Positions 43,787 to 60,730 of a stretch of 64,000 nt of DNA are shown here, in pieces (the first letter of the stretch is position 1; each line of letters opens with the position of its first letter). Source of the stretch: an uncultured Parasphingorhabdus sp. (lineage in GTDB: Bacteria > Pseudomonadota > Alphaproteobacteria > Sphingomonadales > Sphingomonadaceae); NCBI RefSeq assembly GCF_963975555.1, contig NZ_CAXBHH010000005.1:6349-70348 (forward strand), read 5' to 3'. The position numbers and the translations under genes were made by a program. The notes under the pieces are model-generated. The model saw nothing but the letters and a program-made list of their open reading frames with translations. It did no database searches and was not told where the DNA came from.

Positions 43787-43932
43787 CCATCCGACATCAA
43801 AGTCGATATTCTCCTATCCGAGACTCGGATTCTCTAACTAATTGGTGTAGTTAAGGGAATATCAGGGTCGCTATCGCGGTTGCCGGAGTCTGAGGGGACA
43901 AGGCAATGCACAAATATTGTGGGGAGAATATC

Positions 43933-46900
43933 GTGCACCGGACGAGTATCGGTTCAATAATATTGGCGTTGGGGTTGGCATCAACCCCGGTCACTGCTTT
44001 TGCCCAGGGCAAGCCGGTTTCGTTGCGTGACAGCTTTCCTATAGGCAACAGTCAGGGCGTTTTGTGCCAGGTGCAGGATCGCAGCATCGGGAACAAGGCG
44101 AAAGCCGATATGTTTGACCGCAGCTGGGCAATCGTCTGCCGCGATTCCGCAAGGCCGGTCGGTTTTGTCTATTCGTCCAGATCATCGGAGCAGAACCTGC
44201 TTGACCGCATTGCACCCCATCGCAACGAGCCGGTGACATGCACCACCAGCGGGACGCCGACAGCGATCGGTGAATTTCGCCATAACCAATGCCATCTGGC
44301 AACAGAACCGGTAGCCTATTCACAGTTTCTTGGCCGGGAAAATGGCGTTTCCTATGTCGCAGAGGGCTTGGCCGTTTACGACAGTGCGACGTTGCTGGCG
44401 CTCAAATCCATCTTGAATGACTCGATTGTCGAAGGCAAAATCGATGTCGCCTCAACCTCCGTCGAAGATCCATTTGCCTTTGCGCGGGTTCAGGCGGCGA
44501 CCCTGAAACCCGATCAGGCACTGGCCGAAGGGTACAGGCGGAATCTCAGCGGCGACTATGCCGAAGCCGCCGCCTTTTTCGAAACCCTGCAACAGCGCAC
44601 TTCCGGCCTGGAGGGGGAGGATATCAACCCCGACGAATATCTGATCAACCGGGCTTTGCAAAAATCCAATCTGGGCGAATTTGCCGAAGCCAATGAACTA
44701 TTCGAGCAAGCCAGGCAGCGGAACGACGCTGATCCGGTCACCGAACGGCTGCAACGGAATTTTGAAGCCATGCACCTGCTCAATCAGGGCCTGTTTGATG
44801 CGGCAGTCCAGCGGCTGAACGTCCCGCTAAAGACGTCGCAGGCGGAGCAAATCGCGCTGACAGAGCGGCTCGAGATTACCACTCCGATCTCCACCCGGAT
44901 AAACGGCAGCGTGCGTACCCGCAGCCTGCTCGGCTTCGTCAATGAAACGAAATTGAGCGAGCAGGAGCGCTCCGAGATAATCGATGCACAGGCCCTACAA
45001 CTTTTGGGCACGGCCCAGCGGATAAATGGCGATCGCACGACAGCACGTCAGGCGCTTATAACCGCTTATAACCGCGCCATCGCCGTTCGCGATGGCCGGG
45101 TCACGTCCATCACACGACTGAGAGTCCAGATACTCTCCGAACTGGCCCTGATTGCAGAAGCCGATGGCAACTTGGGCGAAGCGGAACAATTGCTCCGCGA
45201 CGGCCTCGATTTACTGAACATCCAATATCCGGAAACGCGGGCCGTCAACGGCACCAAGGCGCGGCTCGCAGCCTTTCTGTTGCGGCATGGAGAAGAATCC
45301 GAAGCACGCCGGTTATATGGTGAAGTCGTCGAAAACTCGCTGGGCAAGCGGAGTGCCATTTCGGGCATGGCGAACCAGCTCACGCCTTATTTCCGACTTC
45401 TTGCTGCAGATCCGGCTGCGGCCGAACAATTTTTCAAAGCTTCCCAGATCCTGGTTCGTCCGGGCGTTGCAGAAACACAGGCGGTCCTTTCGCGTGAGCT
45501 AAGCGCGGGCACAGATGATGCCGCGCGTCTGTTCAGGCAATCGACCAATCTGGCGCGCAGCATCGAACGACTGCGGATCGGTTTCGCGGCCTTGAACAAA
45601 ACCGATCCGTCGCCGTCGACTGTCAAGAAAAGCAATGATCTCGCGGCCGAAATTGAAACACTGGAGCGGAGCCAGCAGCTCACTCAGGTCCGGCTTTCCG
45701 AATTCCCGCAATATCGGGCGGTTGCCGCACGTTTTCTCGGCCTGGACGAGTTGCGCGCTACCCTGCAACCGGACGAAGCCTATATGCGTCTGACGGTCAT
45801 CGGCGACAATATTTTCATGTTCTATTCGGATCAGACAGAGGCGAAGACGTACCGTGTACCGTTGGATGAGAGCACACTCGACGGAAAGGTCGACACGCTC
45901 CGCGCATCAATATCGGCCTATGAAAATGGTCAATATGTCACCTATCCTTTCGATATCGAAGCATCCCGCGCGCTGTATACCGATCTTTTCGAACCGGTTT
46001 CGGATCGGCTTGCAGGCAAGAAACATCTGATATTCGAACCGGATGGCGCCATGCTCCGGTTGCCGATCAATCTGCTCGTTGCCGATGATGCCTCGGTCTC
46101 GCGATATCTTGCAGAAAGCGAAGCGGCCGATAGCGATCCGTTCGATTTCTCCGGTGTCAAATGGCTTGGCAGGAATCTCGATATCAGCACCGCGGTTTCC
46201 GCACGGGCCTTCGCCGATGCCCGTCAGGCTCCCCAGTCGAGTGCCTCTCGACAATATCTCGGTCTGGGCAAGAACCTGCCAATATTACCGGGTGCCAAAG
46301 CGACCGGTATCCGGGGCGGCTCCCAGAATATGAACGCCAAGTGCCAATGGCCACTCAGCCAGTGGGACAGTCCGATCTCCGATCGCGAACTGCGCGAAGC
46401 CCAGTCTCTGGTCGGCGCGGGAACTTCCGATATCCTGACCGGAGCGGCCTTCACCGATACCGCGATCCTGTCGAACGACAAAATCAGCGACTATCGCATC
46501 CTGCATTTTGCAACCCACGGTCTGGTCACAGCTCCTAATCCGTCCTGCCCGGCAAAGCCGGCGCTACTGACGTCTTTCGGGGAACAGGGTTCAGACGGGC
46601 TTCTCGCCTTTGATGAAATTTTTGATCTCAAACTCGACGCAGATATCGTCATTCTCTCCGCCTGCGATACAGCGGGCAAGGCGAGCATCGCGGCAACCCG
46701 TAACGCGGGTGTCAGCAGCGGCGGCGGAACCGCTCTGGACGGTCTGGTCCGATCCTTCATCGGAGCGGGCGGGCGTTCGGTACTGGCCAGCCACTGGCCT
46801 GCGCCGGATGATTATCGCGCCACAGAACGACTGATCAACGGATTTTTCAGCGACGGTCGCGGTCGCTCGATAACCGAAGCGCTCAGACTATCGCAGCTGG

Positions 46901-47052
46901 AACTGATGGATGATCCGGTCACTTCGCATCCTTATTACTGGTCGGGCTTCGCCTTGATCGGTGACGGTGCCCGGCCACTCTTGCCCGGCATGACGGACGC
47001 GGCGGCCAACAACGAAACGGCTGCTGCTGCGACGAAAGCAGCGCTGAAATAA
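43933..47052 (+). CDS. exported TPR-like + CHAT (caspase-like) protease
   Basis: GTG 43933 follows GGGGAG. Signal peptide ending AFA-Q, helical TPR-like middle region, C-terminal ILHFATHG (His codon 46516) and ILSACDT (Cys codon 46663), HPYYWSGF. Confidence 0.9.
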   Translation: MHRTSIGSIILALGLASTPVTAFAQGKPVSLRDSFPIGNSQGVLCQVQDRSIGNKAKADMFDRSWAIVCRDSARPVGFVYSSRSSEQNLLDRIAPHRNEPVTCTTSGTPTAIGEFRHNQCHLATEPVAYSQFLGRENGVSYVAEGLAVYDSATLLALKSILNDSIVEGKIDVASTSVEDPFAFARVQAATLKPDQALAEGYRRNLSGDYAEAAAFFETLQQRTSGLEGEDINPDEYLINRALQKSNLGEFAEANELFEQARQRNDADPVTERLQRNFEAMHLLNQGLFDAAVQRLNVPLKTSQAEQIALTERLEITTPISTRINGSVRTRSLLGFVNETKLSEQERSEIIDAQALQLLGTAQRINGDRTTARQALITAYNRAIAVRDGRVTSITRLRVQILSELALIAEADGNLGEAEQLLRDGLDLLNIQYPETRAVNGTKARLAAFLLRHGEESEARRLYGEVVENSLGKRSAISGMANQLTPYFRLLAADPAAAEQFFKASQILVRPGVAETQAVLSRELSAGTDDAARLFRQSTNLARSIERLRIGFAALNKTDPSPSTVKKSNDLAAEIETLERSQQLTQVRLSEFPQYRAVAARFLGLDELRATLQPDEAYMRLTVIGDNIFMFYSDQTEAKTYRVPLDESTLDGKVDTLRASISAYENGQYVTYPFDIEASRALYTDLFEPVSDRLAGKKHLIFEPDGAMLRLPINLLVADDASVSRYLAESEAADSDPFDFSGVKWLGRNLDISTAVSARAFADARQAPQSSASRQYLGLGKNLPILPGAKATGIRGGSQNMNAKCQWPLSQWDSPISDRELREAQSLVGAGTSDILTGAAFTDTAILSNDKISDYRILHFATHGLVTAPNPSCPAKPALLTSFGEQGSDGLLAFDEIFDLKLDADIVILSACDTAGKASIAATRNAGVSSGGGTALDGLVRSFIGAGGRSVLASHWPAPDDYRATERLINGFFSDGRGRSITEALRLSQLELMDDPVTSHPYYWSGFALIGDGARPLLPGMTDAAANNETAAAATKAALK

Positions 47053-49106
47053 TGACGGCAACCGCCACGCCATCAAACCCGGTTGATAATAATCGCGATG
47101 TGAAGGAAGGTGCCAGAGGTGTCTTGCAATCCATGCGCCGTCTGTTCGATCAGCTCGGGCCAATCCGTATCGGGTCCACGATAATATTCATGATCCTCGC
47201 GCTTCTCGTTGCGCGTTACAGCTGGACGACGCCTCTGATCCAGGAAGCCGAGCGTGCGCTCTATGATTTGCGCGCCTCCGTCTTTGCGCCGGAAGTGGAA
47301 AAAGACGAAAATATCGTGATGATCGTCTATAATGAAGACACGCTGAAGCTGACGGGCCAGCGGTCACCGGTTGACCGGACGATTTTGGCGCAGGCGCTGG
47401 AATCGATCGACGCAGCCAAGCCCAAATCCATCGGCATAGATATTCTGTTCACCATGCCGCAGGATGACGATGACCTGCTTATTTCGGCTTTCAAGAACAT
47501 GAAAACGCCGACTTTCCTTGCTTATGCCGATCCCAAGGAAAATCCCGAAATCGCATTTGCCGAGCATGAGTTCCTGCAACAATTTTTCAAAGAGGCCCGC
47601 AGCGAGAATGTTCAGCCGACTGATATAAAGCTGGAAACCGATAGCGACGGTGTCCAGCGCCGATGGACCCCGCACAGACCGGGTGCGCCGCCTTTCATGG
47701 CCATTGCGCTGACCGGCCCCAATCCGAAATTTGCCAATAATAGCGGCGCGATCCGCTATCATGTGCCGGCGGCGACCGATGTCCCCGTATTTGACAAATT
47801 CCCGATCGAGAATTTCGCTGATCCGGAAATTGCGGACATGCTCGGCTCGTTTATCGCGGGCAAACATGTGCTGATCGGCGGCGATTTCATCGATCGCGAC
47901 CGGTTTGAAACGCCGGTTGGCGGATTGACCAACATCAGCGGGGACGATGGCAAGATGATCGGACTGGAAGTGCATGCGCATATGCTCGCCCAGTTGCTCA
48001 ATGATGATCTGCCGACCCCGGTTGCCAACTGGGCCTTGTGGGTGGGGGCGCTAATCGTTGCAATTTGCGGTGGCCTCTCCGCTCTGATCGTCGGCAATGC
48101 TCTGAAGGTCGCCTTCATACTGCTCGGCCAATTTGTATTCTTTCTCACTTTTCCTTTCCTGCTGCAAAATATCGGGACCGATACGCTGACCCTGCCTGCC
48201 TTTGGCTGGGGTGTCGGATGGTTGCTTGGCTATGCCTCGGTCGGTTCGGCCGCGCGGACCATCAATTCCAAACAGCGGGCCTTTGCGCAGAATGCTCTGG
48301 GTAAATATCTGCCGAAATCGATTGCAAGCGAGATATTGAAAGATCCCGAGAAACTGGCGTTGCACGGGGAGAAGCGGAAAATATTCGCGGTGTTTACCGA
48401 TCTCGAAGGCTTTACCAAGCTGACCCACGCGATCGAGCCGGAAATGGTAGCAACCCTGCTGAACGATTATCTCGACCGGTTGAGCGATGTGGCGCTGGAA
48501 TATGGCGGCACTATCGACAAATTTGTCGGTGACGCGCTGGTCACCTTCTGGGGCGCTCCCATCGCCTATCCTGATGATGGGGAACGAGCGGCCAAAGCGG
48601 CCTATGCACTTTATCAGGCCGGTGAAGAGTTTCGCAAAAATGTACCCGAAGGGGTGCCGCCGATTGGCAGAACCCGGGTCGGCATGCATTATGGCGATGC
48701 CATCGTCGGCAATTTCGGCGGCGAAGGCCGTATCCAATATACCGCTCTCGGGGATGCCATGAATACCGCGGCACGCCTGGAAGCTGCCAACAAGACCCTG
48801 GGGACCAAAGTCCTGCTGAGCCGGGAAGCGATGGAACGAACCGGCCTCGACTGGTTTCGGCCAATGGGCCGGATCACGCTACGCGGTCGATCCACGCCGG
48901 TCGATGTGTTTGAACCTGTCCCCGACTGGGAAGAGAAAGATCGCGCAGCAGTGACCGCAGTCATAGCCGCGCACGAAATCGGTGATACTGGTTCTATTCA
49001 GGCACTGGGTGTCATGATCAAGGAAAATGGCGAAGACCAGGGTCTCGCCAATTTGCTCAAACGACTGCAAACGACAAAAAATGGAGAAAGCTATGCACTT
49101 GGATAA
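47052..49106 (+). CDS. CHASE2-domain membrane adenylate cyclase (class III)
   Basis: N-terminal TM, CHASE2 (IGIDILF, GLEVHAHMLAQ), 3 TM helices, FTDLEGFT, KFVGD and YTALGDAMNTAARLE. Confidence 0.93.
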   Translation: MTATATPSNPVDNNRDVKEGARGVLQSMRRLFDQLGPIRIGSTIIFMILALLVARYSWTTPLIQEAERALYDLRASVFAPEVEKDENIVMIVYNEDTLKLTGQRSPVDRTILAQALESIDAAKPKSIGIDILFTMPQDDDDLLISAFKNMKTPTFLAYADPKENPEIAFAEHEFLQQFFKEARSENVQPTDIKLETDSDGVQRRWTPHRPGAPPFMAIALTGPNPKFANNSGAIRYHVPAATDVPVFDKFPIENFADPEIADMLGSFIAGKHVLIGGDFIDRDRFETPVGGLTNISGDDGKMIGLEVHAHMLAQLLNDDLPTPVANWALWVGALIVAICGGLSALIVGNALKVAFILLGQFVFFLTFPFLLQNIGTDTLTLPAFGWGVGWLLGYASVGSAARTINSKQRAFAQNALGKYLPKSIASEILKDPEKLALHGEKRKIFAVFTDLEGFTKLTHAIEPEMVATLLNDYLDRLSDVALEYGGTIDKFVGDALVTFWGAPIAYPDDGERAAKAAYALYQAGEEFRKNVPEGVPPIGRTRVGMHYGDAIVGNFGGEGRIQYTALGDAMNTAARLEAANKTLGTKVLLSREAMERTGLDWFRPMGRITLRGRSTPVDVFEPVPDWEEKDRAAVTAVIAAHEIGDTGSIQALGVMIKENGEDQGLANLLKRLQTTKNGESYALG

Positions 49107-49893
49107 GATTGATCCGGTAAAATCCGGCGGAGCCCTTCCCCTTCTTGCGAAAGCCGCGCTCGGTTCGCTTCTGCTGTTCGGCGCTGGCGGGGTTGCCATG
49201 GCGCAGAATATGGTCGTCCGTTCGACCGGCCCTTCGGCCAGCAGCTATCCTGCGGGCAAAAAAATGGCGAATGATGCAAAAGTCTCGCTGAAGGCTCAAG
49301 ATCAGGTAACCATTTTGACCAAGTCAGGCACGCGCGTTCTCAAAGGTCCGGGAACCTTTTCGCTTGCACAGGGCGCAGGGTCGGCAACCAGCGCATCACG
49401 CCGGCTGTCGAGCTTTATCAGCAATCGGGGCAGCAGCCGGGCGAGAACCGGAGCCGTTCGCGCTGCCGGTAGTGTCACGGTCGAAACGCCGAACAATCCC
49501 AACCTCTGGTATCTTGACGTGACCAAGGGCGGAAAATTCTGTGTTGCCGATCCGGATGCGCTGGTTGTCTGGCGGCCCGACTACACAGGGTCGGCGACGG
49601 CTTCGATTGTCGAACCGAAGGAAGGCAATGTCACCGAAATCGCATGGCGGAAAGGCAATCCGCTGAAAGCCTGGCCGAAGGATGTTCTGCCAGTCACCGA
49701 CGGTGCGAGCTATCGCCTGCTCGGATCGAACGTTCCACAATCGGTCGAGGTGAATTTCGTGGTGCTGCAAAACCAGCCTACCGACCTCGATGATACCGCC
49801 TCCATGTTGATAGAAAACGGATGTAGCGGGCAACTGGATTTGCTGGTTGAAACACTTGATCTGAACAGCGGGGAACCGGCAGATCAGGGTTAG
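49093..49893 (+). CDS. exported protein of unknown function
   Basis: ATG 49093 follows GGAGA and overlaps the cyclase end by 14 nt. Signal peptide ending AMA-Q, beta-rich N-domain, GAVR linker, Cys pair. Confidence 0.8.
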   Translation: MHLDKIDPVKSGGALPLLAKAALGSLLLFGAGGVAMAQNMVVRSTGPSASSYPAGKKMANDAKVSLKAQDQVTILTKSGTRVLKGPGTFSLAQGAGSATSASRRLSSFISNRGSSRARTGAVRAAGSVTVETPNNPNLWYLDVTKGGKFCVADPDALVVWRPDYTGSATASIVEPKEGNVTEIAWRKGNPLKAWPKDVLPVTDGASYRLLGSNVPQSVEVNFVVLQNQPTDLDDTASMLIENGCSGQLDLLVETLDLNSGEPADQG

Positions 49894-49995
49894 CTTATGA
49901 AGAATATCTGCCGTCCGGAATGAGGGCTGGACGGCAGAATGGGGATAAGATGGTTCAGTGGGTCGTACATGGATCATCGAAAAACGGGGACTAAT

Positions 49996-51789
49996 ATGTC
50001 GCGCACGCGCACAACAGTACAAACAACAGCTATGGCGGCGGGTATCGCCATATTGACAACAAGCCTGCCTGCCTGGGGCCAATCGTCCGTCGCGGCACCG
50101 ACCAGGGAAGAAATCCAGCGCGGAGTCGTGGACAAAGGACTCCAAGGCCAGTCCCGGACGCTATCCGTTGACAGCGAAGTCGAGCGGTCCGCCTGCCCGC
50201 TCGCCGGACCGGAATTCTCCGATGTCCGCTTCACGCTGAAGTCCGTTGATTTCACCGGACTGATTTCAGTGGATCCCGGTTCGCTGACATCGTCCTACGC
50301 AGACTATGTCGGTCAGGACGTTCCGGTTTCAGTCGTCTGCGATATCCGCGACCGGGCAGCGACGATATTGCGCAGCAATGGCTATCTGGCCGCCGTACAA
50401 GTCCCGCCCCAGACAATTGATCAGGGCAATGTCCGCTTCGACGTGCTGATGGCACGAATGACCTCGGTGCAAGTCCGGGGCGATGCCGGACGATCCAAAG
50501 GCCTGTTGCAGAAATATATCGAAAAACTGGCCGCACAGCCGGTTTTCAACATCAATATAGCAGACCGTTATCTGCTGCTCGCCCGCGACATTCCGGGTCT
50601 GGATGTACGGCTTTCGCTTCGGCCGGTATCGGCGGAATCCGGCGGACAGCCGGGAGAAGTGGTCGGCGAATTCAACGTCATCCGCACGCCCGTCTACGCC
50701 GACGTCAACTTCCAGAATTTCGGCTCCGAAGCTGTCGGCCGCTTTGGCGGACTTGGCCGGCTCCGGTTCAACGGGCTCACCGGAATGGGTGATGAAACCG
50801 TGATCAGCGGCTACACGACCTCTGATTTGAAGGAACAGCAGGTTCTGCAAGCCAGCCACGAATTCCGCGTTGGTGGCGAAGGCCTGAAGCTGGGTGCCAA
50901 TTTCACTTACGCATGGACCAAGCCGGAACTGGCCGGCGGATTTTCGATCAAATCCGAAACGCTGGTTGCCAGCGCTTATGCAAGCTATCCCTTTGTCCGC
51001 AAACAGTCGCGCAATATCTTCGGGACAATCGGCCTCGACTATATCGACCAGCGGACCGATATTCTGGGCACTCGCACCAACGAAGACCGTCTGAGTGTGG
51101 CTTATGCCCGCGTTGACTTCAGCCAGATCGAACCGGGGAGCATTTCGGGACGGGGCGGCTATTCCGCCTTCGAACCGAAATGGGGCATCGGCGGCTCGCT
51201 GGAACTCCGTCAGGGCCTTGACATATTGGGTGCCAGCGAGGGCTGCGGCCCGGCATTTGTCAACTGCATCGGCCAGACCGTCTTGCCAACCCGCGCCGAT
51301 GGCGACCCGACAGCATTTGTCGTCAGGGGACAGGCAAAAATAGATTACCGCCCCACCCCGCTGCTGGCATTGACCTTAAAACCACGACTGCAATATTCGC
51401 CGGATGCCTTGTTCTCCTATGAAGAAATATCCGGAGGCAATTATACAACAGGCCGTGGCTATGATCCCGGAACGATCATCGGCGACAGCGGCTACGGGCT
51501 GCAGACAGAGATCAGCTACGGCTCCCTGCTGCCCGATTCACCCGAGGGGATCGCGGTACAACCTTATCTGTTTTTTGATCTGATGGGCGTCTGGAACAAG
51601 AACAGTCCGGGTGATCCGCAGAAGCTCTATTCCGCAGGTGGCGGGTTCCGTACGACCATTGGCCAGCGGGCCAGTCTGGACCTGACCGCGGTCGTGCCGC
51701 TAAAACGCGCAGCCTTCCAGACCCGCCGCGATAGCGCGCGCGCCCTCCTGACTTTGACGATCCAGCTCGCGCCGTGGAAGCGCAGATGA
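49996..51789 (+). CDS. TpsB (ShlB/FhaC/HecB family) two-partner secretion transporter
   Basis: Signal peptide, POTRA motifs (DRAATILRSNGY, RYLLLARDIPG), barrel with GRGYDPGTIIGDSG (VRGY-like). ATG 49996 follows GGGGA. Confidence 0.92.
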   Translation: MSRTRTTVQTTAMAAGIAILTTSLPAWGQSSVAAPTREEIQRGVVDKGLQGQSRTLSVDSEVERSACPLAGPEFSDVRFTLKSVDFTGLISVDPGSLTSSYADYVGQDVPVSVVCDIRDRAATILRSNGYLAAVQVPPQTIDQGNVRFDVLMARMTSVQVRGDAGRSKGLLQKYIEKLAAQPVFNINIADRYLLLARDIPGLDVRLSLRPVSAESGGQPGEVVGEFNVIRTPVYADVNFQNFGSEAVGRFGGLGRLRFNGLTGMGDETVISGYTTSDLKEQQVLQASHEFRVGGEGLKLGANFTYAWTKPELAGGFSIKSETLVASAYASYPFVRKQSRNIFGTIGLDYIDQRTDILGTRTNEDRLSVAYARVDFSQIEPGSISGRGGYSAFEPKWGIGGSLELRQGLDILGASEGCGPAFVNCIGQTVLPTRADGDPTAFVVRGQAKIDYRPTPLLALTLKPRLQYSPDALFSYEEISGGNYTTGRGYDPGTIIGDSGYGLQTEISYGSLLPDSPEGIAVQPYLFFDLMGVWNKNSPGDPQKLYSAGGGFRTTIGQRASLDLTAVVPLKRAAFQTRRDSARALLTLTIQLAPWKRR

Positions 51790-51841: not shown

Positions 51842-54800
51842 ATGACGACAAGACCGCAAAGCAGAAGCCCAAAAGCGACCACAGGCCCTGGCCGGAAAAA
51901 AATGCGGTGGCTGTCCGGAAGTTCTATGGCGGCGGCAGCCGTCCTGCTGGCGGCCGCGCCGCAAGTGGCAAAGGCGCAAACACCGTTGGGCGCGCCAATA
52001 CCGGGATTGAACGAGGCACATGCTTTCACCCCTGCTGACGGGCAGGCGTTTCAGGCCGGTGTCACGAGCCCGACGGGAGGCGCGGTTTTTACGGGTCCGC
52101 GTACGACCAATATGGATCAGCTACAAATATCGCTGAGCGAAGTGGTGTTAAACTGGACACCGCTTGACACGGATGCACCGACTTTTGGTGCCGATGGTCT
52201 GGTCAACAACCCGATTAATATATTACCCAGCGGTAGAACTCTGCAGTTTGTGTCTAACGGCACAAACTATACGGTTCTGAACCGTATTTTGCCGGCGGTA
52301 GCCGCCGATGGCAGACCGGTACAGTTCAACGGCACTGTCGAAAGTTTTTTAGACCTTGGCGCAACGACGCCGGGCGGCAACATCTGGTTCTATAGTCCGG
52401 GCGGAATCATCGCCGGCGCCACCAGTACATTTGACGTCGGCAGCCTAGTGCTGACCACAAATGATATAAATACAACTGGTGGACTGTTGGGTGTAGGCGG
52501 TGAAATGCGCTTCAGCGGCATCGCTGGCAGCAAATCAGCGATCATTATCGAAAATGGTGCGCAGATCAATGCGCTCAACAATGGCAGCAGTTACGTCGCC
52601 ATGGTTGCCCCCCGCGTCGTTCAGGGCGGTGGCGTGAATGTCGATGGGTCGGTTGCCTATGTCGCAGCCGAACAGGCTGACCTGACCATCAACAACGGAC
52701 TTTTCGATATTACAATCGGCGTGGGAACTTCCGATGCGAATGGCATTGTCCATAGCGGGACGACAACCGGGCCGTCATCAACCCCGAGTTTTAACGGCGC
52801 GGGCGCTGTAACCAACGCGGACGCTCAGGCCATATATATGGTTGCTGTGCCAAAAAATGATGCTGTAACAATGCTGATCGGAGGAGCTGTCGGTTATCAG
52901 CAAGCTGCCAGTGCAGGCATCGTCAACGGCAATATAGTGCTCAGTGCTGGTGGCAATGTTTCTGTTGGTGGCTCCGACGTTGCGCCGACAAACCTGATTG
53001 AAGAAAATCTAACTTCGACCGCAGCGACCAATATCCAGATCGGTGGCGGCGGCGTGACCACTTTTGATTCGACGCTCGAATTATTCGCTGCAGACAGCAT
53101 TACATTCTCGGCCGAGTCAGATGCGGATTCGATCATCATTTCCAACGACGTCGGTTCGCAGGATTTGAACCTGACCGCGGGCAATGAGATCAATCTCAAT
53201 ACGTCCGGCGGTGGCCAGATATTCGTCAATGGCGACATAAATCTGACCGCAGGGACCGGCGCGACGGGGGGCAATATAAACCTAAACATTGATCGCACCG
53301 GCTTTGGGTTTCAGGCCAATACCGGACTGCGTCTGACCGGCGATTTGAATTTCGACAGCCGTGGCATCGGTGCCGACGATTTCTTTACGGTCATCGACAA
53401 CGGCGGTACCGGGATAGGCCAAGATGCCACGGGCGGAGACGTCACCATCAACATCACCAATGGCGGCCTGTTGGATGTCGGCGGAAATACAACGTTCCTG
53501 GCCAGCGCCCAGGGCGGCAAAGGCGAGATTCAAAACGGCTTTGCGCAAGCAGGCGATATCACGTTCAACATGGACGGCGGCACCGCGCAATTTGGCGGCA
53601 ACGTCAATTTCAACGCCTCGGCCATAGATGCGGGTTCCGGAAAAATTGGCGGAAACGGACCCGGTTTACTGGGCAGTGACAGCATCGCCGGTAATGTCGG
53701 ACTGAACCTGTCGGGCGGCGAGATGACGGTCAGCGGCACTCTCCAGATAACAACCGACGCGGAACGTACCAGCGGTTCGGATAGTACAGTAGTCCAGAAC
53801 AATGTCGCCGTCGCAGGCGCAGTTGATCTTGCCATCTCAGGCGGGCTCCACAATTTTGGAAGCGTGGGAATTTCCAGCGTTGCAAGCGGAGGGGAATCAT
53901 TTGACGCCGGCGGCAACAACATTGCCGGTAACCTCAGCCGCGGCGCGGTTAATTTTGCCGTCAGCAACTCCGGCACCGATGTATCAATAACCAACAACAT
54001 GTTTATTGACGCCAGAACATCCGGCAATATTGTGAGCGATCCTGCGATAGACGCGGTAACGATCAGCATTCTCAACACAAGCGGCGAGGGTGCAGGACTC
54101 AATGTTACGAACGAAATCTCGATACAAACCGAGGCGTCCAATGGTCTTGCCGGCAGTAATCTCACCTCCGGATCAGTCTCCATAAGTGCCGATAACGGCG
54201 ATATCAGTTTCGGTAGTCTTGCCGTAGACACCAGCTCGACAGTTGGATTTTCAGCGACCGAATTGAGTGACGGGCTAATTGCCGGAGACATCGATATCGT
54301 AGCGCAAAATGGTGGCATTATATCAAGCGGTAATGTCGATTTATATGCCAACGTAACTACCCAGGCGACCGAAGGGGTCAACGCGGCCGGCGGGAATGTG
54401 CTGATTCACGCAAATGATGGCTTCATCGATTTCACCGGATTTTTCAATGCCGATGTAAGCGCACAGGCAGGCGCAACAGACCCGTCGACAGTAACCAATG
54501 CACAGGGCGGAACCGCCAGAATATTGCTGGAAGGCACATCGCCGATAAGCAGCAGAATCGATTTTGTGGACATTAATTTCAATTCGGACGGTCTGATCGA
54601 TACCAATCTGGAAACGACTGTACCTTTTGAAGGTGATGGTGGCACCGGTTCAGGCGGTAGCGTTATATTTGACCTTTTCGGCGGTACATTCGTCGCAGGT
54701 GATATTGTAACCAGCGCCAGTGGCTCAGGCGGTCGAGGCGGAGCCATAGTGACATTGCCCGCCCCGAATGTGGCGGCGCCTTTCGCTTCTGCTTTCGCGG

Positions 54801-57800
54801 CACCAGAGGATCTTAGCGTGGTAAACGCTGCCTTTGCGGGCGGCGTATCGGCAGGTGACGGCGGCGATGGCCAGGGCGGTGATGTAACATTCAACCTGAA
54901 CGGGGGCAATGCGACCGTTACCAACCTCACTATTTCAGCAAATGGCTTCGGCGGTAACGGAGCCAATGGCGATATAAACAACGGCACCTCCGGCGGATCC
55001 GGCGGTCGCGGGATCGGCGGCAATGCAGTTTTCAACGCACAAACCGGGAATCTGACCGTCACCAATACGCTAACCGTGTCTGCCGAGGGTAATAATCAGA
55101 ACATCGCCCCTTATGGATCTTACGGAGCGGGTGGTTATGGTTATGCCTCTGACGGCGGCAATGGTGGCGACGGGATCGGCGGCACCGCAACCTTCAACCT
55201 CGACGGTACCGCAACAATCAATGCCACTAACATCGTCATCTCCACCAGCGCCGATGGCGGATATGGCGGAGATAGCACCGACGAGTTCAGCGGAGCGGCT
55301 CCCGCCGGGCTTGGCGGCCGTGGCGGCAACGGGACCGGCGGCGATGCCACGTTCAACAATAATGCGGGTACTCTGGGTTTCGACCAGCTTTCGGTAACTT
55401 CAGTCGGAACCGGCGGGGATGGCGGCGATATTTTTGGTGCAAACACCGGCGAAGCGGATAATTTCGGGGGCGATGGCGGCATCGGAACCGGCGGGAATGC
55501 TACCATCAACATCAATCAGGATGATCTCAACAACCCTGTTTACGTCGTCGACGCCAGCGGCGTCGGTGGCGATGGCGGCTATGGCGTGGACGGAGGCGAT
55601 GGCGGCGCTGCCTTTGGCGGCACAGCGGCAATCAATATCAACAATGCTACGGCGAATCCTGATGACCCAACCATCATGGCCAATGCTACCGGCGGCAACG
55701 GCGGTGAAGGCAGGATAGATACTAACCCCTCGGCCGACCCTTCAATAACGGGTGTGGGCTACAGCGGCGACGGCGGCAATGCCACGGCGGGGACGGCGCG
55801 TTTGCAAGTCACCGGCGCTGGCGGCAATATCGATCTCGGTTCCATCACATTGGAAGCCAATGCTACCGGCGGCAACGGGACGGACGGTTACTACAGATAC
55901 GGCGCTGGCATAATCGGCGGCCGTGGTGGATCGGGCGGCGACGCTTCTGGCGGCACGGTAGAGCTGATCGCGCGGACCGGCGGAACGCTGTCATTAACAT
56001 CCGGTGATTTTACCATGACCAGTACCGGCATCGGCGGAAATGGCGGCGATGGTGCGGACTCCGCTGACAACGCAGCTGGCGACGCCGGCAACGGCGGCAA
56101 CGCGACTGGCGGCACCGGTCGCCTGCTTGCGCAGGGCGGCACAATTTCCGGTAACAATCTGGACATAACCACAGCCGGTCTTGCCGGTGATGGCGGAATT
56201 GGCGGTATAGTTTTGAATCCCGGTTTCGGAACAGCCGGTGTCGACGGCACAGGCGGAGACGGCACCGGGGGAACCGGCATTATCGAGGTTCAGGAAGGCA
56301 GTCCCGGAATACTGAGTTTTGCCGACGTTACCATAAATGCCAACGGCACGGGCGGTGGCGGACCTATTGCCGGTGTCGGCGCGGGTGGGCGTATCGAAAT
56401 TTCCGACAGTTCGACCGATCCGGCAGGACTGATAAGCTTGGGCAGCCTGGCAGCCAGTGCCTTTGATGCCGCAATCGGGACCGGGACCGGCTCGGGTTCG
56501 GCCCCTCTTGGCGGCTTCTTCACAACAGCCAACAGCGGAGCTGTATCGATTCTCGGTGATCTGACCGTGGATGTCGCCGGCAATATCGAATATGATCTCG
56601 ACGGCGACGCGCAAATGACGGTGGGCGGCAATGCTACGCTGAACAGCGGTCAGAATATCCTGATCAACCATACGAACAATACTACGTCGGTAAATTCCAT
56701 CGATGTGTCGAGCGTCTTCGCGGCGACAAGTCAGGGCGATTTCATCAGCACAGACGGCTCCCGGATCAACGCGGGTGGCTCGGCTTCGGTTCGCGCAGAG
56801 CAGAATGCCACCGTCGCCGATCTAGCCGGTGTCGGCCTGGTCGATATTTCTGCGCTGCAGAATGTCGCCGTCAACAATGCTGCCGTCACTGGCGTTCCCG
56901 CCGTGGTCTCCGTCGGATCGCTGTCTTACGTCGTGGCACCACAATTGACGATCAACGCAGGATATGACCCTGCAGTATCACCTCCTCCAATCTTCGATCC
57001 AAGTTTCAATGCCACAATAACCGGCGACGTCACATCGACCGGGTTCATCGCCATCGGCGCGGGCGGCAACGCCTATTTCCGCGCCGGCAGCAATGTCGTG
57101 TCTGACAATGGTCTGGCGGTCCGTACCGGCGATGATATCATCATTGAATCCGGAGCAAGCCTGACCGCTGCCAATAATCCATCGACATCGCCCGACGCTT
57201 CTTCCACGTTTACCAATCCGGGCAATCTGATCTTGCAGGCCGGGGACTTTACCGGTCTGTTCGGCAGTCCCATCGGAACACTCGGCACCACGCCGCTGAC
57301 GCCGATTGCCTCGATTGTTGCAGCAGGCGATCTCGACGCAAACGGCTTCGCGGTCGTCATGACCGCCAATGCAGTCGACGGTCTCGGCGGCACGATCACC
57401 GCCAGTTCGATCAGCGTGGACATCAACGATGCTCCTCCGACTGGAACGGGCCAGATTGATGACAACGGGCTGCTGAGCGCACAGTGCCTGCAGGGCAATG
57501 TCTGCCTGGGCACGCTCAACGCGGACAATCTGGTCTACATCGGCCGGGCGAGCAACAATGACGTGATCCAGGCCATCATCGAAAGCGGGACGGTTTCGGC
57601 CAACGATATACTGGTCACCACCCGCCGCGACATTGTCATGGGAACGACGGGCATCGCGACGGTTCTTGATGCGTCGAACCAGTTCATTGTCGAAAGTACC
57701 GAAGGCAACGTCGACCTGCGCAATGCGTCGGTCAGCAGCACCAGCATATTGATTAGCGCTGTCAATGGCAGCCTACTTGGCTCCGGATCGCTGACCAGCG

Positions 57801-60730
57801 ACAGTGATATCGGTATCACCGTGGCGGCAGATATCAACGCAGCATTGATCGACACCGGCGGCCAGCTAACCACCGTCGGGTCAGTCGACGGTGATCTGGA
57901 AAACAGCTACACCGTGCCGGGTAGCATTGACGTCGGCACACTGACGCAAGGCGGGGATATCGATATCAACATCCTCGCGGGCGGCGACATCAGCTTTGGC
58001 CAGATCAATCTGCCTGCCGACCGCAGCATTGCGCTGACCGCCGCTACCGGCGATGCCTTCCTCGGCAGCAACAGCAGCGCGACTTCGGTCTCGGTTCTTG
58101 GCAATAATGTCGGCTTCCACAATCTTCAGTCTAGCGGAGCCATCACGCTCAACGCCACGAGCGGCGACCTGACCGGTTCCGGTCCCGGTGACCTGACGGC
58201 AGGCGGCGCGATCAATCTCGACGCTTCGAATGCGATCAATATCGGCAACGCCACGACGACAGGTATTGGACAGAGCATCAATCTGGTCGCCAATGATGTT
58301 ACCGCTGGCGCTCTCGAAACAGATAGCGGCGATATTTTGGTTTCAGCGGCACAGAATATCACGCTCGTTTCCGCTGTCACCGGAACCGGCACCCCAACCG
58401 CCGCCTCGATAGGTTTGCTCGCCGGCGGCAATATTTCCTCTACCGGAGCCCTCAATGCCGGTGAAGATGTGGCGATCCGGGCGCTGGGCGATGTCGCTCT
58501 GGGGACGGTATCCGCAGGCGACGATTTCACGGTTCAGGCCGATGGCGCGATTACGCTGGATAGTGCAACCACCAGCGGCACCGGAATCGACCTGTTCGCC
58601 TTGGCGTTCAACACGGCCAATGCCGGTCAGGCCGGATCGATCGCCTTTGCCAGTGAAACGATCACGGGCTCGAACATCCAGCTGGATAGCGGCAGCGATG
58701 TGACGGCTACCGGTGCGCTCAATGCTGATAATGATATCAATATCACCGCAACCGGAACGCCAACTGTTGCCAATGCAATCAGCGGCAGCAACACAAGCAT
58801 TTCGGGCACTTCCGTTGTGCTCAACAACGGAACTATCGGCGGCAACCTGACACTCGCCGCTCTCGCGGGCGATATCGATGGCAATGGTACCGTGGTTGTA
58901 GGCGGCGACATCGATCTCGATGCCACCGGCAATGTCGGCTTTGGCGATCTTGATGCGCAGGGAGGCACTTTCACTGTCGATGCGGGCGGTAATATAGACT
59001 TCATCAATGCTTCGAGCGGCAGCGCCATGAGCCTGAATGCTGGCGGCGACATCAACGGCGGCGATCTGACTTCCGGTGGCGATATCGCGATCGACGGCGG
59101 CAATGATGCCAATCTGGGGTTCGTTGACAGCATCACAAATGTGAGTGCCCAATTGCTGGGAGGCTTTGTTGCAGACACAGTGAGTGCGTCCCAGACGGGT
59201 CAGGGTGAAGTCGACATCAGCGCTGACAACGGAATCGATATAGCCAATGTCTCGGGCAATGACATATATCTGACCGCCGCAACCGGCCTGGTCAATGTCA
59301 CCAACAACGTCGATGTGACCAATAGCATCATCGCATCGGGCGAAGCCGTCTCTATTGTCACGCAACAAGATACGACGGTCAGCGCCGAAGCTACCAATGG
59401 TGATGTCGGGCTATTCTCGGCAGCCGGTTTGATAATTCAAGGCGCGGAAGCCACAGGCGACATCAGCATGAGCGCCGGCAATGTTCTGATCGACGGTTTG
59501 GTGAGTGCGGACAATCAACTGCTGATAACCGCGGATGGGTTGATAGACATTCAGGCTGAAACAATCGGCAACACTATTGAGACGGTCAGCGCCGATATGA
59601 ATATCGGTTCTACCGGCAGCCTTGGTCTGAACGCTTTGACCAGCGATATCCGCATATCCAGCAACGGCAGCACGCAGATGATGCTCGGCGACGGGACGGA
59701 TCTGACCGGCACCTTCTCGCTCAACAATGACGAATTCAGCCGGATCCGTTCGGGCGGCGATTTGACAATCTCCGCCGCCGAGACAGGGCTCAGCGGATTT
59801 GACCTGACGATTCAGGAGCTTTCGGCAAGCGCGTTTTCGGAAGGCAATTTCGCTGAAACTGGAAACCTGAATCTCTCAGCAGTGCAATCGATAAGGGTGA
59901 GCGGCAATCTGTCTGTACAGGGTGGTTTGGACTCTAACCTCAATCTCGCTGCTGGCGATAATCTGTTAGTTAACGCCGCAACCGGCTCCATTGCCATGGG
60001 AAATGACAGCAGTCTGTCAGGGAACCTCTCCCTCACCGCACGCAATATCTACGCGATGACGGATCAGGCTTTTGACGATATTCAGGGCATGACCACCGCC
60101 GGAATTGACGAGCGACTTGCCCAGAATGACGGCAATGTCCGGGAGAACGGATTCATTGTGGCAGACGCGATCAGCGTCACTCTGCTTGCCAGCCAGTTCT
60201 ACGTTCAAAATACCGGCAATGGCACTGACTTCGATGCCCGGCGAGGCTTTGTGGCCGGCGCTGGCGGTCTGAGCATCAATGCTGGTCCAAGTGGTATCAC
60301 ACCGATTGTCATCAATGGCACAGTCAACGGCGCAACCGGTATTGCGGCCATTCCAGCGACAACGATCACGGGAGCCGGCTACAATCCACAATCTACAATC
60401 AACGGCTGTGTTATCGCCAACCCTGCGAGTTGCGCGCCTACTCCAACACCTACTTCTGAACCGGCAATACCCGGGATAGATGATCCGGTGCAGGATGTGA
60501 TTGAAGAAGAGGTCACACCGGAGCAATATGCGGCGGATCCGCTCGCGAGCAATCTGATCGAGATCAAGGAAATTGAAGATCTGGCTGATGATCCGTTGAT
60601 CGACGAACCGGTAACCGGCGCGGGTAATGATGATCTCTGGGTGAACGGATTTGATTGCGAGCTCGATAATAGCGGAAAATGCCAGACCGAAGACGATGAG
60701 GACGAAGAAGAACTCGAACCGGCAGAATGA
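51842..60730 (+). CDS. giant TpsA / filamentous-haemagglutinin-like exoprotein, 2962 aa
   Basis: Extended signal peptide, TPS domain (VLNW, VLNRI, NGTVES, IWFYSPGGI), Gly/Asn/Thr-rich beta-helix repeats, acidic tail. Directly follows tpsB. Confidence 0.92.
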   Translation: MTTRPQSRSPKATTGPGRKKMRWLSGSSMAAAAVLLAAAPQVAKAQTPLGAPIPGLNEAHAFTPADGQAFQAGVTSPTGGAVFTGPRTTNMDQLQISLSEVVLNWTPLDTDAPTFGADGLVNNPINILPSGRTLQFVSNGTNYTVLNRILPAVAADGRPVQFNGTVESFLDLGATTPGGNIWFYSPGGIIAGATSTFDVGSLVLTTNDINTTGGLLGVGGEMRFSGIAGSKSAIIIENGAQINALNNGSSYVAMVAPRVVQGGGVNVDGSVAYVAAEQADLTINNGLFDITIGVGTSDANGIVHSGTTTGPSSTPSFNGAGAVTNADAQAIYMVAVPKNDAVTMLIGGAVGYQQAASAGIVNGNIVLSAGGNVSVGGSDVAPTNLIEENLTSTAATNIQIGGGGVTTFDSTLELFAADSITFSAESDADSIIISNDVGSQDLNLTAGNEINLNTSGGGQIFVNGDINLTAGTGATGGNINLNIDRTGFGFQANTGLRLTGDLNFDSRGIGADDFFTVIDNGGTGIGQDATGGDVTINITNGGLLDVGGNTTFLASAQGGKGEIQNGFAQAGDITFNMDGGTAQFGGNVNFNASAIDAGSGKIGGNGPGLLGSDSIAGNVGLNLSGGEMTVSGTLQITTDAERTSGSDSTVVQNNVAVAGAVDLAISGGLHNFGSVGISSVASGGESFDAGGNNIAGNLSRGAVNFAVSNSGTDVSITNNMFIDARTSGNIVSDPAIDAVTISILNTSGEGAGLNVTNEISIQTEASNGLAGSNLTSGSVSISADNGDISFGSLAVDTSSTVGFSATELSDGLIAGDIDIVAQNGGIISSGNVDLYANVTTQATEGVNAAGGNVLIHANDGFIDFTGFFNADVSAQAGATDPSTVTNAQGGTARILLEGTSPISSRIDFVDINFNSDGLIDTNLETTVPFEGDGGTGSGGSVIFDLFGGTFVAGDIVTSASGSGGRGGAIVTLPAPNVAAPFASAFAAPEDLSVVNAAFAGGVSAGDGGDGQGGDVTFNLNGGNATVTNLTISANGFGGNGANGDINNGTSGGSGGRGIGGNAVFNAQTGNLTVTNTLTVSAEGNNQNIAPYGSYGAGGYGYASDGGNGGDGIGGTATFNLDGTATINATNIVISTSADGGYGGDSTDEFSGAAPAGLGGRGGNGTGGDATFNNNAGTLGFDQLSVTSVGTGGDGGDIFGANTGEADNFGGDGGIGTGGNATININQDDLNNPVYVVDASGVGGDGGYGVDGGDGGAAFGGTAAININNATANPDDPTIMANATGGNGGEGRIDTNPSADPSITGVGYSGDGGNATAGTARLQVTGAGGNIDLGSITLEANATGGNGTDGYYRYGAGIIGGRGGSGGDASGGTVELIARTGGTLSLTSGDFTMTSTGIGGNGGDGADSADNAAGDAGNGGNATGGTGRLLAQGGTISGNNLDITTAGLAGDGGIGGIVLNPGFGTAGVDGTGGDGTGGTGIIEVQEGSPGILSFADVTINANGTGGGGPIAGVGAGGRIEISDSSTDPAGLISLGSLAASAFDAAIGTGTGSGSAPLGGFFTTANSGAVSILGDLTVDVAGNIEYDLDGDAQMTVGGNATLNSGQNILINHTNNTTSVNSIDVSSVFAATSQGDFISTDGSRINAGGSASVRAEQNATVADLAGVGLVDISALQNVAVNNAAVTGVPAVVSVGSLSYVVAPQLTINAGYDPAVSPPPIFDPSFNATITGDVTSTGFIAIGAGGNAYFRAGSNVVSDNGLAVRTGDDIIIESGASLTAANNPSTSPDASSTFTNPGNLILQAGDFTGLFGSPIGTLGTTPLTPIASIVAAGDLDANGFAVVMTANAVDGLGGTITASSISVDINDAPPTGTGQIDDNGLLSAQCLQGNVCLGTLNADNLVYIGRASNNDVIQAIIESGTVSANDILVTTRRDIVMGTTGIATVLDASNQFIVESTEGNVDLRNASVSSTSILISAVNGSLLGSGSLTSDSDIGITVAADINAALIDTGGQLTTVGSVDGDLENSYTVPGSIDVGTLTQGGDIDINILAGGDISFGQINLPADRSIALTAATGDAFLGSNSSATSVSVLGNNVGFHNLQSSGAITLNATSGDLTGSGPGDLTAGGAINLDASNAINIGNATTTGIGQSINLVANDVTAGALETDSGDILVSAAQNITLVSAVTGTGTPTAASIGLLAGGNISSTGALNAGEDVAIRALGDVALGTVSAGDDFTVQADGAITLDSATTSGTGIDLFALAFNTANAGQAGSIAFASETITGSNIQLDSGSDVTATGALNADNDINITATGTPTVANAISGSNTSISGTSVVLNNGTIGGNLTLAALAGDIDGNGTVVVGGDIDLDATGNVGFGDLDAQGGTFTVDAGGNIDFINASSGSAMSLNAGGDINGGDLTSGGDIAIDGGNDANLGFVDSITNVSAQLLGGFVADTVSASQTGQGEVDISADNGIDIANVSGNDIYLTAATGLVNVTNNVDVTNSIIASGEAVSIVTQQDTTVSAEATNGDVGLFSAAGLIIQGAEATGDISMSAGNVLIDGLVSADNQLLITADGLIDIQAETIGNTIETVSADMNIGSTGSLGLNALTSDIRISSNGSTQMMLGDGTDLTGTFSLNNDEFSRIRSGGDLTISAAETGLSGFDLTIQELSASAFSEGNFAETGNLNLSAVQSIRVSGNLSVQGGLDSNLNLAAGDNLLVNAATGSIAMGNDSSLSGNLSLTARNIYAMTDQAFDDIQGMTTAGIDERLAQNDGNVRENGFIVADAISVTLLASQFYVQNTGNGTDFDARRGFVAGAGGLSINAGPSGITPIVINGTVNGATGIAAIPATTITGAGYNPQSTINGCVIANPASCAPTPTPTSEPAIPGIDDPVQDVIEEEVTPEQYAADPLASNLIEIKEIEDLADDPLIDEPVTGAGNDDLWVNGFDCELDNSGKCQTEDDEDEEELEPAE

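Follow-up and report, generated by a model that had tools for sequence, protein, structure and literature searches.

We analyzed a 64,000-nucleotide stretch of contig NZ_CAXBHH010000005.1 (positions 6,349 to 70,348; hereafter, the window) from an uncultured Parasphingorhabdus sp. It encodes a giant TpsA-like exoprotein together with a TpsB transporter, a TPR-CHAT protease, a CHASE2 nucleotide cyclase, and a small exported protein. Our subject is the C-terminal tail of the giant protein. We found that this tail carries a short, Cys-free linear motif that is near-invariant among its relatives, and that the tail stays with the partner genes in relatives that have a different stalk.

RESULTS

Anatomy of the giant protein and its tail

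The giant gene and the parts of its product that matter here all lie on the plus strand. A1 denotes the 33-sequence alignment of C-terminal ends, and pLDDT is the predicted local distance difference test score of AlphaFold2.

51842..60730, plus strand: giant TpsA-like exoprotein, 2962 amino acids (open reading frame and translation)
57485..57505, plus strand: mid-stalk Cys pair C1882-x5-C1888, in the context SAQCLQGNVCLGT (Cys codons at nucleotides 57485 and 57503)
59858..60433, plus strand: C-terminal beta-helix cap, residues 2673-2864 (AlphaFold2 pLDDT 89-98)
60407..60433, plus strand: cap Cys pair C2856-x7-C2864, at the end of the folded part (Cys codons at 60407 and 60431)
60434..60484, plus strand: Pro/Thr-rich spacer APTPTPTSEPAIPGIDD, residues 2865-2881, of variable length and sequence
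60485..60589, plus strand: acidic spacer, residues 2882-2916, with semi-conserved PVQDVIEEE and LIEIK blocks (A1)
60590..60640, plus strand: near-invariant short linear motif DPLIDEPVTGAGNDDLW, residues 2917-2933 (A1, homolog counts, and genome scan)
60656..60682, plus strand: terminal Cys pair C2939-x7-C2947, in a hook-like position (Cys codons at 60656 and 60680)
60683..60727, plus strand: acidic C-terminal end QTEDDEDEEELEPAE, limited to some lineages

The giant protein begins with a Sec signal peptide (...AAAPQVAKA-QT, with cleavage at AKA-Q) and continues as a beta-helical stalk rich in Gly, Ala, Thr, Ser, and Asn. Pfam places a TPS domain (PF05860) at residues 174 to 322 with an E value of 6e-4 and 20.2 bits, below the gathering score of 33.5 bits, and the TPS domain gave no match at E <= 0.01 when the whole protein was run against Pfam. 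By BLASTP, residues 84 to 555 align to the N termini of two metagenomic proteins, P0305 and P0374 (34% identity, E 8e-45), the first of which carries the Joint Genome Institute name filamentous hemagglutinin family protein. Two other marks of type Vb secretion were found: a signal peptide ahead of a long beta-helical passenger, and a neighboring TpsB with POTRA_2 and ShlB domains, a pairing that recurs in 5 other loci. The giant protein fits a TpsA because TpsB is adjacent, a signal peptide is present, and the fold is beta-helical. Many homologs from the Sphingopyxis group (P0044 to P0121) have an extra Cys about 21 to 31 residues from the N terminus, in the signal peptide region, where the giant protein has none.

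An earlier sequence-only reading of this DNA had stated that the only Cys residues of the protein form three close pairs. A script run on the translation bore this out, with six Cys in all 2962 residues arranged as three tight pairs; the chance that six randomly placed Cys would give three pairs no more than 8 residues apart is about 1.5e-6. The first pair had been described as C-x6-C, which is the wrong spacing, since five residues separate positions 1882 and 1888; the two C-x7-C pairs lie where they had been placed. PTPTPT (60437-60454, inside the Pro/Thr-rich spacer), the D/E-rich stretch, and IDEPVTGAGNDDLW (60599-60640) were likewise located as that reading had claimed.

The cap carries invariant QN..RRG, IVING, and STINGC-x7-C elements in A1. 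A Pro-rich run comes next in nearly every relative and reads APPP in P0305 and P0374. Between cap and motif lie 46 to 84 amino acids across the family, with a net charge of about -12. In the window protein, the 98 residues past Cys2864 have an isoelectric point of 4.05 and a net charge of about -26, of which -14 falls before the motif and -12 after it. The motif itself has the 13-residue, Cys-free consensus D[DE]PVTGAGN[DE]D[LF]W, or in a longer form PL(I/L)D(D/E)PVTGAGN(D/E)DLW, and its invariant columns in A1 are P, T, G, G, N, D, and W. What comes after it varies: ends of the ELEPAE type are found chiefly in sequences from Parasphingorhabdus and the Erythrobacter group, the majority of Sphingopyxis proteins end 4 to 6 amino acids beyond the motif Trp, and the terminal Cys pair and the acidic ELEPAE end are each present in only about half of the relatives.

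No Pfam family was matched at E <= 10 by the last 166 amino acids or by the mid-stalk Cys region, and no NCBIfam model was matched by the whole protein. A PDB sequence search with the tail gave no match. The last 150 residues contain no TAAG-type LapG site ([T/P/A]AA[G/V]), a tetrapeptide found within the last 120 residues of only 12 of 245 relatives.

A conserved motif and three unlike cysteine pairs

We used residues 2700 to 2962 as the query of a homolog search, which returned 170 proteins of 1.6 to 3.7 thousand residues, of which 120 were listed and scored. Every one of the 170 that is named below the level of Alphaproteobacteria belongs to the Sphingomonadales, the named genera being Parasphingorhabdus, Sphingorhabdus, Sphingopyxis, Erythrobacter, Qipengyuania, Sphingomonas, and Sphingobium. 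The motif or a one-residue variant of it was present in all 120 listed homologs. Additionally, a profile of the last 290 residues (A1) was scored against 1.84 billion cluster representatives and matched 904 proteins at E <= 0.001 and 397 at E <= 1e-30; among the best 150 of the 904, all matches lay at or within about 45 residues of the C terminus. The motif or a near variant was found in 123 of 125 further representatives, and the remaining two look truncated or frameshifted. The sequence-only reading had held that a motif that is not conserved would refute it; in these two sets the motif proved near-invariant.

In every carrier, the motif sits 4 to 36 amino acids from the C terminus, and it occurs at no internal site among 246 family proteins. 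A scan of 185,579 species genomes (one genome each) for the nonapeptide PVTGAGN[DE]D gave 306 stretches, 288 of which encode relatives of the tail; the best 80 of these loci are essentially all from Sphingomonadales, and cysS directly follows in 73 of the 80. The last 263 to 290 residues of the relatives are only 38 to 69% identical, yet the motif is near-invariant. Thus, in the sequences compared, conservation peaks at the motif and not at the Cys hooks or the acidic end.

Two side observations concern these loci. Some Parasphingorhabdus metagenome-assembled genomes have two genes with the tail (L040 and L048; L016 and L037), and the second copies carry SE[SL]GL[IL]DEPVTGAGNDDLW and have no cysS behind them. 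One metagenome-assembled genome labeled Marinomonas (L069) has a sphingomonad-type tail followed by cysS, and its contig is probably misbinned.

The three Cys pairs behave differently across the family. The cap pair is present as C-x7-C in 118 of 120 homologs, 46 to 84 residues before the motif, and in 109 of 112 further relatives; it persists as C-x5-C in relatives with an MBG-type stalk and as C-x6-C in a Sphingomonas parapaucimobilis paralog. The terminal pair, with C2939 at 23 and C2947 at 15 residues from the C terminus and so within the last ~50 residues, was found in 51 of 120 homologs and 60 of 112 further relatives. Cys residues after the motif number 0 or 2 and never otherwise, with a spacing of 5 to 11 residues, and relatives that have no terminal pair stop 4 to 19 residues past the motif Trp. 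The mid-stalk pair appears as C-x5-C in the context SAQC[LV][EQ]GN[VIL]CLG in 72 of 199 long relatives, and the mid-stalk Cys are absent from 92 of the 199. A ranking by sequence conservation places the motif and the cap pair first, the terminal pair and the acidic end next, and the mid-stalk pair last.

AlphaFold2, run on the C-terminal piece with A1, gave a model of cap and tail with a mean pLDDT of 81. Cap residues 2673 to 2864, including STINGC and the second Cys, form a beta-helix with pLDDT values of 89 to 98 per ten-residue block, and in this model the cap pair is part of the confidently folded beta-helix cap rather than of the free tail. All residues past Cys2864, the motif included, have pLDDT values of 46 to 68; the motif has no predicted secondary structure and is not packed on the cap. 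A Foldseek comparison of the cap-and-tail model with the PDB gave no match at E <= 0.001. Because the 98 residues after the cap are predicted with such low confidence, the motif reads as a short linear motif for another protein; an invariant hydrophobic and aromatic motif within a region of predicted disorder is what sites of partner binding or cleavage typically show. A picture of three cysteine hooks has to give way to one of three separate elements: the disulfide of the cap, the invariant linear motif, and a terminal loop that is optional.

Stalk exchange and partner genes

The partner genes precede the giant gene on the plus strand.

43906..47052, plus strand: exported TPR-CHAT caspase-like protease, the candidate tail partner (Pfam CHAT, E 1.6e-54)
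47052..49106, plus strand: CHASE2 sensor fused to a class III nucleotide cyclase (CHASE2, E 1.1e-28; Guanylate_cyc, E 2.9e-13)
49093..49893, plus strand: exported 266-amino-acid protein outside known families (no Pfam or NCBIfam match; conserved in 6 loci)
49939..51789, plus strand: TpsB outer-membrane transporter, directly upstream of the giant gene (ShlB, E 2.9e-17; POTRA_2, E 1.7e-6)

The gene order is thus TPR-CHAT, CHASE2 cyclase, 266-amino-acid protein, TpsB, giant gene, and cysS. All four partners have a signal peptide or a periplasmic domain, the signal peptide of TPR-CHAT ending in ...TAFA-QG. CHAT, the CHASE2 cyclase, an exported protein of ~250 amino acids, and TpsB were kept in 5 of 5 sphingomonad-type loci examined, and the same five genes were found in Sphingopyxis, in Sphingobium, and in one metagenome locus. 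For the 266-amino-acid protein, AlphaFold2 predicted two beta-sandwich domains with a mean pLDDT of 68, and Foldseek returned weak Ig/FN3-like matches only. The start of this protein is ambiguous: the longest open reading frame runs from 49027, inside the cyclase gene, and homologs align from a Met at 49093, a start that yields 266 amino acids and a signal peptide.

P0305 and P0374 have an MBG_2/Glug stalk that is unrelated to the stalk of the giant protein. In full-length BLASTP alignments, only residues 84-555 and 2852-2933 were aligned, the latter at 32% identity and E 3e-4. Both proteins end in T[AS]C-x5-C-APPP ... VLINSVI ... RE[PA]V[AS]GAGN[TA]TLW plus 5 or 6 residues, and their loci hold TpsB, TpsA, CHAT, the CHASE2 cyclase, and the ~250-amino-acid protein in a different order. 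The CHAT of one such swapped-stalk locus (L089) is 42% identical to the window CHAT over its full length. Because P0305 and P0374 keep both ends and the neighbors despite another stalk, the tail, as far as these alignments indicate, is coupled to the secretion domain and the partner genes and not to the stalk. This stalk swap is the strongest evidence here that the tail would serve the machinery rather than the external function of the fiber.

Other CHAT-linked loci gave a mixed picture. On a Niveispirillum cyanobacteriorum plasmid (L084, 8013-24131), the gene order is TpsB, TpsA, TPR-CHAT, small protein, CHASE2 cyclase, and the CHAT is about 31% identical to the window CHAT over the C-terminal half. 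The TpsA there has a Pro/Val/Ala-rich spacer and a tail, invariant within the genus, whose last residues are ...FPNLGRVW; homology of this tail to the window tail was rejected, with an hhalign probability of 0.1%. The Niveispirillum CHAT begins with the lipobox LLSAC.

A Sphingomonas parapaucimobilis plasmid (L091, 6700-20584) has a TpsB-like gene, TpsA, CHAT, and a CPBP intramembrane protease inside a type VI secretion system cluster, and this locus has no CHASE2. Its TpsA retains SRINGC-x6-C (BLASTP E 6e-4 to the window cap), and ...SPIIGANNEELL..., located 22 residues before its C terminus, may be a decayed form of the motif. The CHASE2-less locus weakly favors CHAT or TpsB over CHASE2 as the putative partner of the tail. 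In Calothrix sp. 336/3, a plasmid (L087, 12224-16471) encodes one protein of 1415 amino acids that joins POTRA, POTRA_2, TPR, and CHAT and has no beta-barrel, and its gene adjoins DUF928 and CHASE2 genes; this fusion ties a CHAT protease to the substrates of a TpsB-type transporter. Plasmid CHAT genes of Pseudosulfitobacter, Agrobacterium vitis, and Azospirillum were also considered and set aside, as they are not linked to a two-partner secretion system.

DISCUSSION

What the tail may do

The tail matches no family model, solved structure, or paper that we found; in kind it joins the C-terminal anchors and regulatory tails already known from TpsA proteins. Tentatively, and at somewhat short of an even chance, we favor the reading that it is a periplasm-side anchor or regulatory tail recognized by a product of the operon, for which the TPR-CHAT protease is the likeliest candidate. 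In the mechanism that we propose, the stalk and cap would be exported and would fold outside the cell, and the Pro/Thr spacer, which is long enough to thread the TpsB pore, would span that pore. The tail would remain on the periplasmic side of TpsB, where the acidic spacer would bring the motif into the periplasm and the motif would dock to a periplasmic operon partner, most probably the TPR-CHAT protease. By holding or cutting the tail, this partner would determine whether the fiber stays on the cell or is shed. The terminal disulfide loop, where there is one, as in the window protein, would add a mechanical stop like that of CdrA or HMW1. The sequence-only reading had inferred a tail that stays periplasmic and is the likely CHAT substrate or CHASE2 signal; the conservation of the motif and its constant linkage to CHAT support that reading in part.

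Unstructured linkers are the characteristic targets of CHAT proteases, which differ in specificity (PMC11506125). DdvA of Myxococcus xanthus is a periplasmic TPR-CHAT protein proposed to cut a flexible linker (PMC11506125) and so offers a precedent for the action of such a module in the periplasm; it is unlike the window protease in being an anti-sigma factor proposed to cut itself, with no TpsA substrate.

Several points weigh against this reading. The anatomy of the tail, its conservation pattern, its low-confidence prediction, its modularity, and its gene linkage are established here; we infer its topology, the identity of its partner, and its cleavage. Any TpsA has to pass through the periplasm on its way out, so gene linkage to proteins of that compartment is not enough to place the tail there permanently, and a low pLDDT is not proof of disorder. 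Because the terminal pair is missing from 69 of 120 and 52 of 112 relatives, it cannot, on these counts, be an essential retention device; with the terminal hook dispensable in half of the family, retention would need to rest on a putative noncovalent interaction. Because the CHAT-linked TpsA of Niveispirillum has an unrelated tail, the motif is no general requirement of CHAT/CHASE2 modules. Finally, a charge-compensation scan for columns that are basic in four loci with a GN[DE]D motif and nonbasic in two loci with a GN[TA]T motif singled out no partner (8 columns in CHAT, 5 in TpsB, 3 in CHASE2, and 0 in the small protein), and with two outgroup sequences only it is confounded by phylogeny.

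The tail might instead be a TpsB-directed signal in which CHAT has no part, one that ends translocation, lodges in the TpsB pore or on the POTRA domains, and tethers the fiber, with the motif as the TpsB contact. The stalk swap keeps exactly two parts, the tail and the TPS domain, the latter being known as the ligand of TpsB; a TpsB gene was present in every locus seen, and the CHASE2-less S. parapaucimobilis locus has both the cap Cys pair and a TpsB-like gene. There is also a precedent, in that HMW1 and HxuA of Haemophilus influenzae are locked in their transporters, HMW1B and HxuB, by a periplasmic C-terminal domain with a disulfide, as PMC5422565 describes. The window tail is like these in having a short C-terminal segment with one disulfide loop, a segment that in HMW1 and HxuA is proposed to remain periplasmic and to lock the TpsA in its transporter (PMC5422565). 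However, the classical anchors depend on the disulfide loop, which is key there and optional here: about half of the relatives have no terminal loop, and what does not vary is the 13-residue motif, which contains no Cys. CHAT is equally constant in the loci that have TpsB, so linkage cannot separate this idea from recognition by CHAT, and the charge-compensation scan found no TpsB feature that covaries with the motif. We consider a tether to TpsB alone unlikely.

More doubtful is a tail that is fully exported and acts outside the cell, with TGAGNDDLW as a single RTX-like calcium turn or as a capping or adhesive tip and with the acidic tail binding cations or surface polymers. The motif is one position off the RTX nonapeptide GGxGxDxUx, fitting the consensus at 8 of 9 positions, and the acidity of the tail is extreme. 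An extracellular location is conceivable for the cap and for both small disulfide loops, and the mid-stalk C-x5-C suggests that such loops pass TpsB or form after it. Unlike RTX proteins, however, the window protein has a single copy and is secreted by a different route; a beta-roll cannot be built from one nonapeptide, and the last 166 amino acids gave no match to HemolysinCabind (PF00353) in Pfam at E <= 10. The position of the RTX calcium-ligand Asp is not conserved: it holds D or E here, whereas the MBG-type relatives have T or A at this position and retain G-A-G-N and L-W. The invariant P, V, L, and W would suit docking better than ion binding, and AlphaFold2 leaves the motif unpacked on the cap.

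A further alternative, and in our judgment an improbable one, is that CHASE2 has as its ligand the tail itself or a piece cleaved from it, so that the status of the fiber would be reported to the cytoplasm as cyclic AMP (cAMP). We know of no established ligand for CHASE2. A CHASE2 cyclase adjoins in the 5 of 5 sphingomonad-type loci examined and in Niveispirillum, and the spacer of 46 to 84 amino acids is long enough to reach deep into the periplasm. In contrast, S. parapaucimobilis has TpsB, TpsA, CHAT, the cap Cys pair, and possibly a decayed motif but no CHASE2, and Niveispirillum has CHASE2 but an unrelated tail. We also consider a version that would combine protease and cyclase, and we hold it to be a long shot: the tail may act as a tethered reporter, in that a strained, engaged, or misassembled fiber would lead TPR-CHAT to clip at or near the motif, and either the acidic, Trp-containing peptide so released or the vacated docking site would signal through CHASE2 to cAMP. 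If true, this would provide the first defined ligand of a CHASE2 receptor and the first substrate of a periplasmic CHAT protease.

That the tail is a low-complexity appendage with no specific function, its motif a relic of the lineage, is scarcely credible: the Pro/Thr and acidic spacers do vary freely in length and sequence, but the near-invariant motif amid tails that are 38 to 69% identical, the 904 cluster representatives, and the stalk swap contradict it.

Relation to known anchors and significance

The preferred reading, recognition of the tail by an operon partner in the periplasm, has its closest parallels in two systems besides HMW1 and HxuA, which we compared by description and layout. 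In Pseudomonas aeruginosa, the TpsA fiber CdrA is thought to be held by its C terminus in the pore of the TpsB CdrB, and like the window protein it has a Cys pair near that end. CdrA has a cleavage motif beside this pair, and a dedicated periplasmic cysteine protease releases the fiber under second-messenger control; LapG cuts the periplasmic tail of CdrA at TAAG, residues 2105/2106 of 2154, beside the C-terminal cysteine hook (bioRxiv 10.64898/2026.07.13.738186). The stalk of CdrA consists of MBG2 repeats, as in the stalks of P0305 and P0374. Unlike CdrA, the window tail has no TAAG, its linked protease is TPR-CHAT and not LapG, the terminal Cys pair is optional in its family, and the linked signaling protein is a CHASE2 nucleotide cyclase and not the cyclic di-GMP-controlled system of LapG. 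A hook as the conserved element, which defines an anchor of the CdrA/HMW1 type, is not what we found in the family of the window tail.

In FhaB of Bordetella, a proline-rich region precedes the extreme C terminus, the last 98 residues, which lie in the periplasm and shield the prodomain from CtpA until DegP removes them (PMC8263021). The likeness, which is one of layout only, lies in a Pro-rich stretch followed by a conserved tail of ~98 amino acids, a tail that in FhaB gates stepwise proteolysis (PMC8263021). The prodomain of FhaB, however, spans ~1200 amino acids and has a PNT stopper, whereas here only 98 residues lie past the folded cap, and DegP, CtpA, and SphB1 are unlinked housekeeping or surface enzymes, whereas CHAT is encoded in the operon. 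The window tail resembles CdrA, HMW1/HxuA, and FhaB in layout and is a member of none of these groups.

Literature searches returned no paper on the motif string and none on CHAT together with CHASE2 and two-partner secretion. A peptide of 13 to 17 residues is a cheap reagent for binding, cleavage, and cAMP assays and could yield the first substrate or ligand for CHAT or CHASE2. The C-terminal anchors and tails of two-partner-secreted adhesins are known only from a few pathogens, through CdrA, HMW1, HxuA, and FhaB. The Sphingomonadales family described here has a different solution, in which an invariant Cys-free linear motif and a tail predicted to be disordered follow a disulfide-closed cap and are portable between unrelated stalks.

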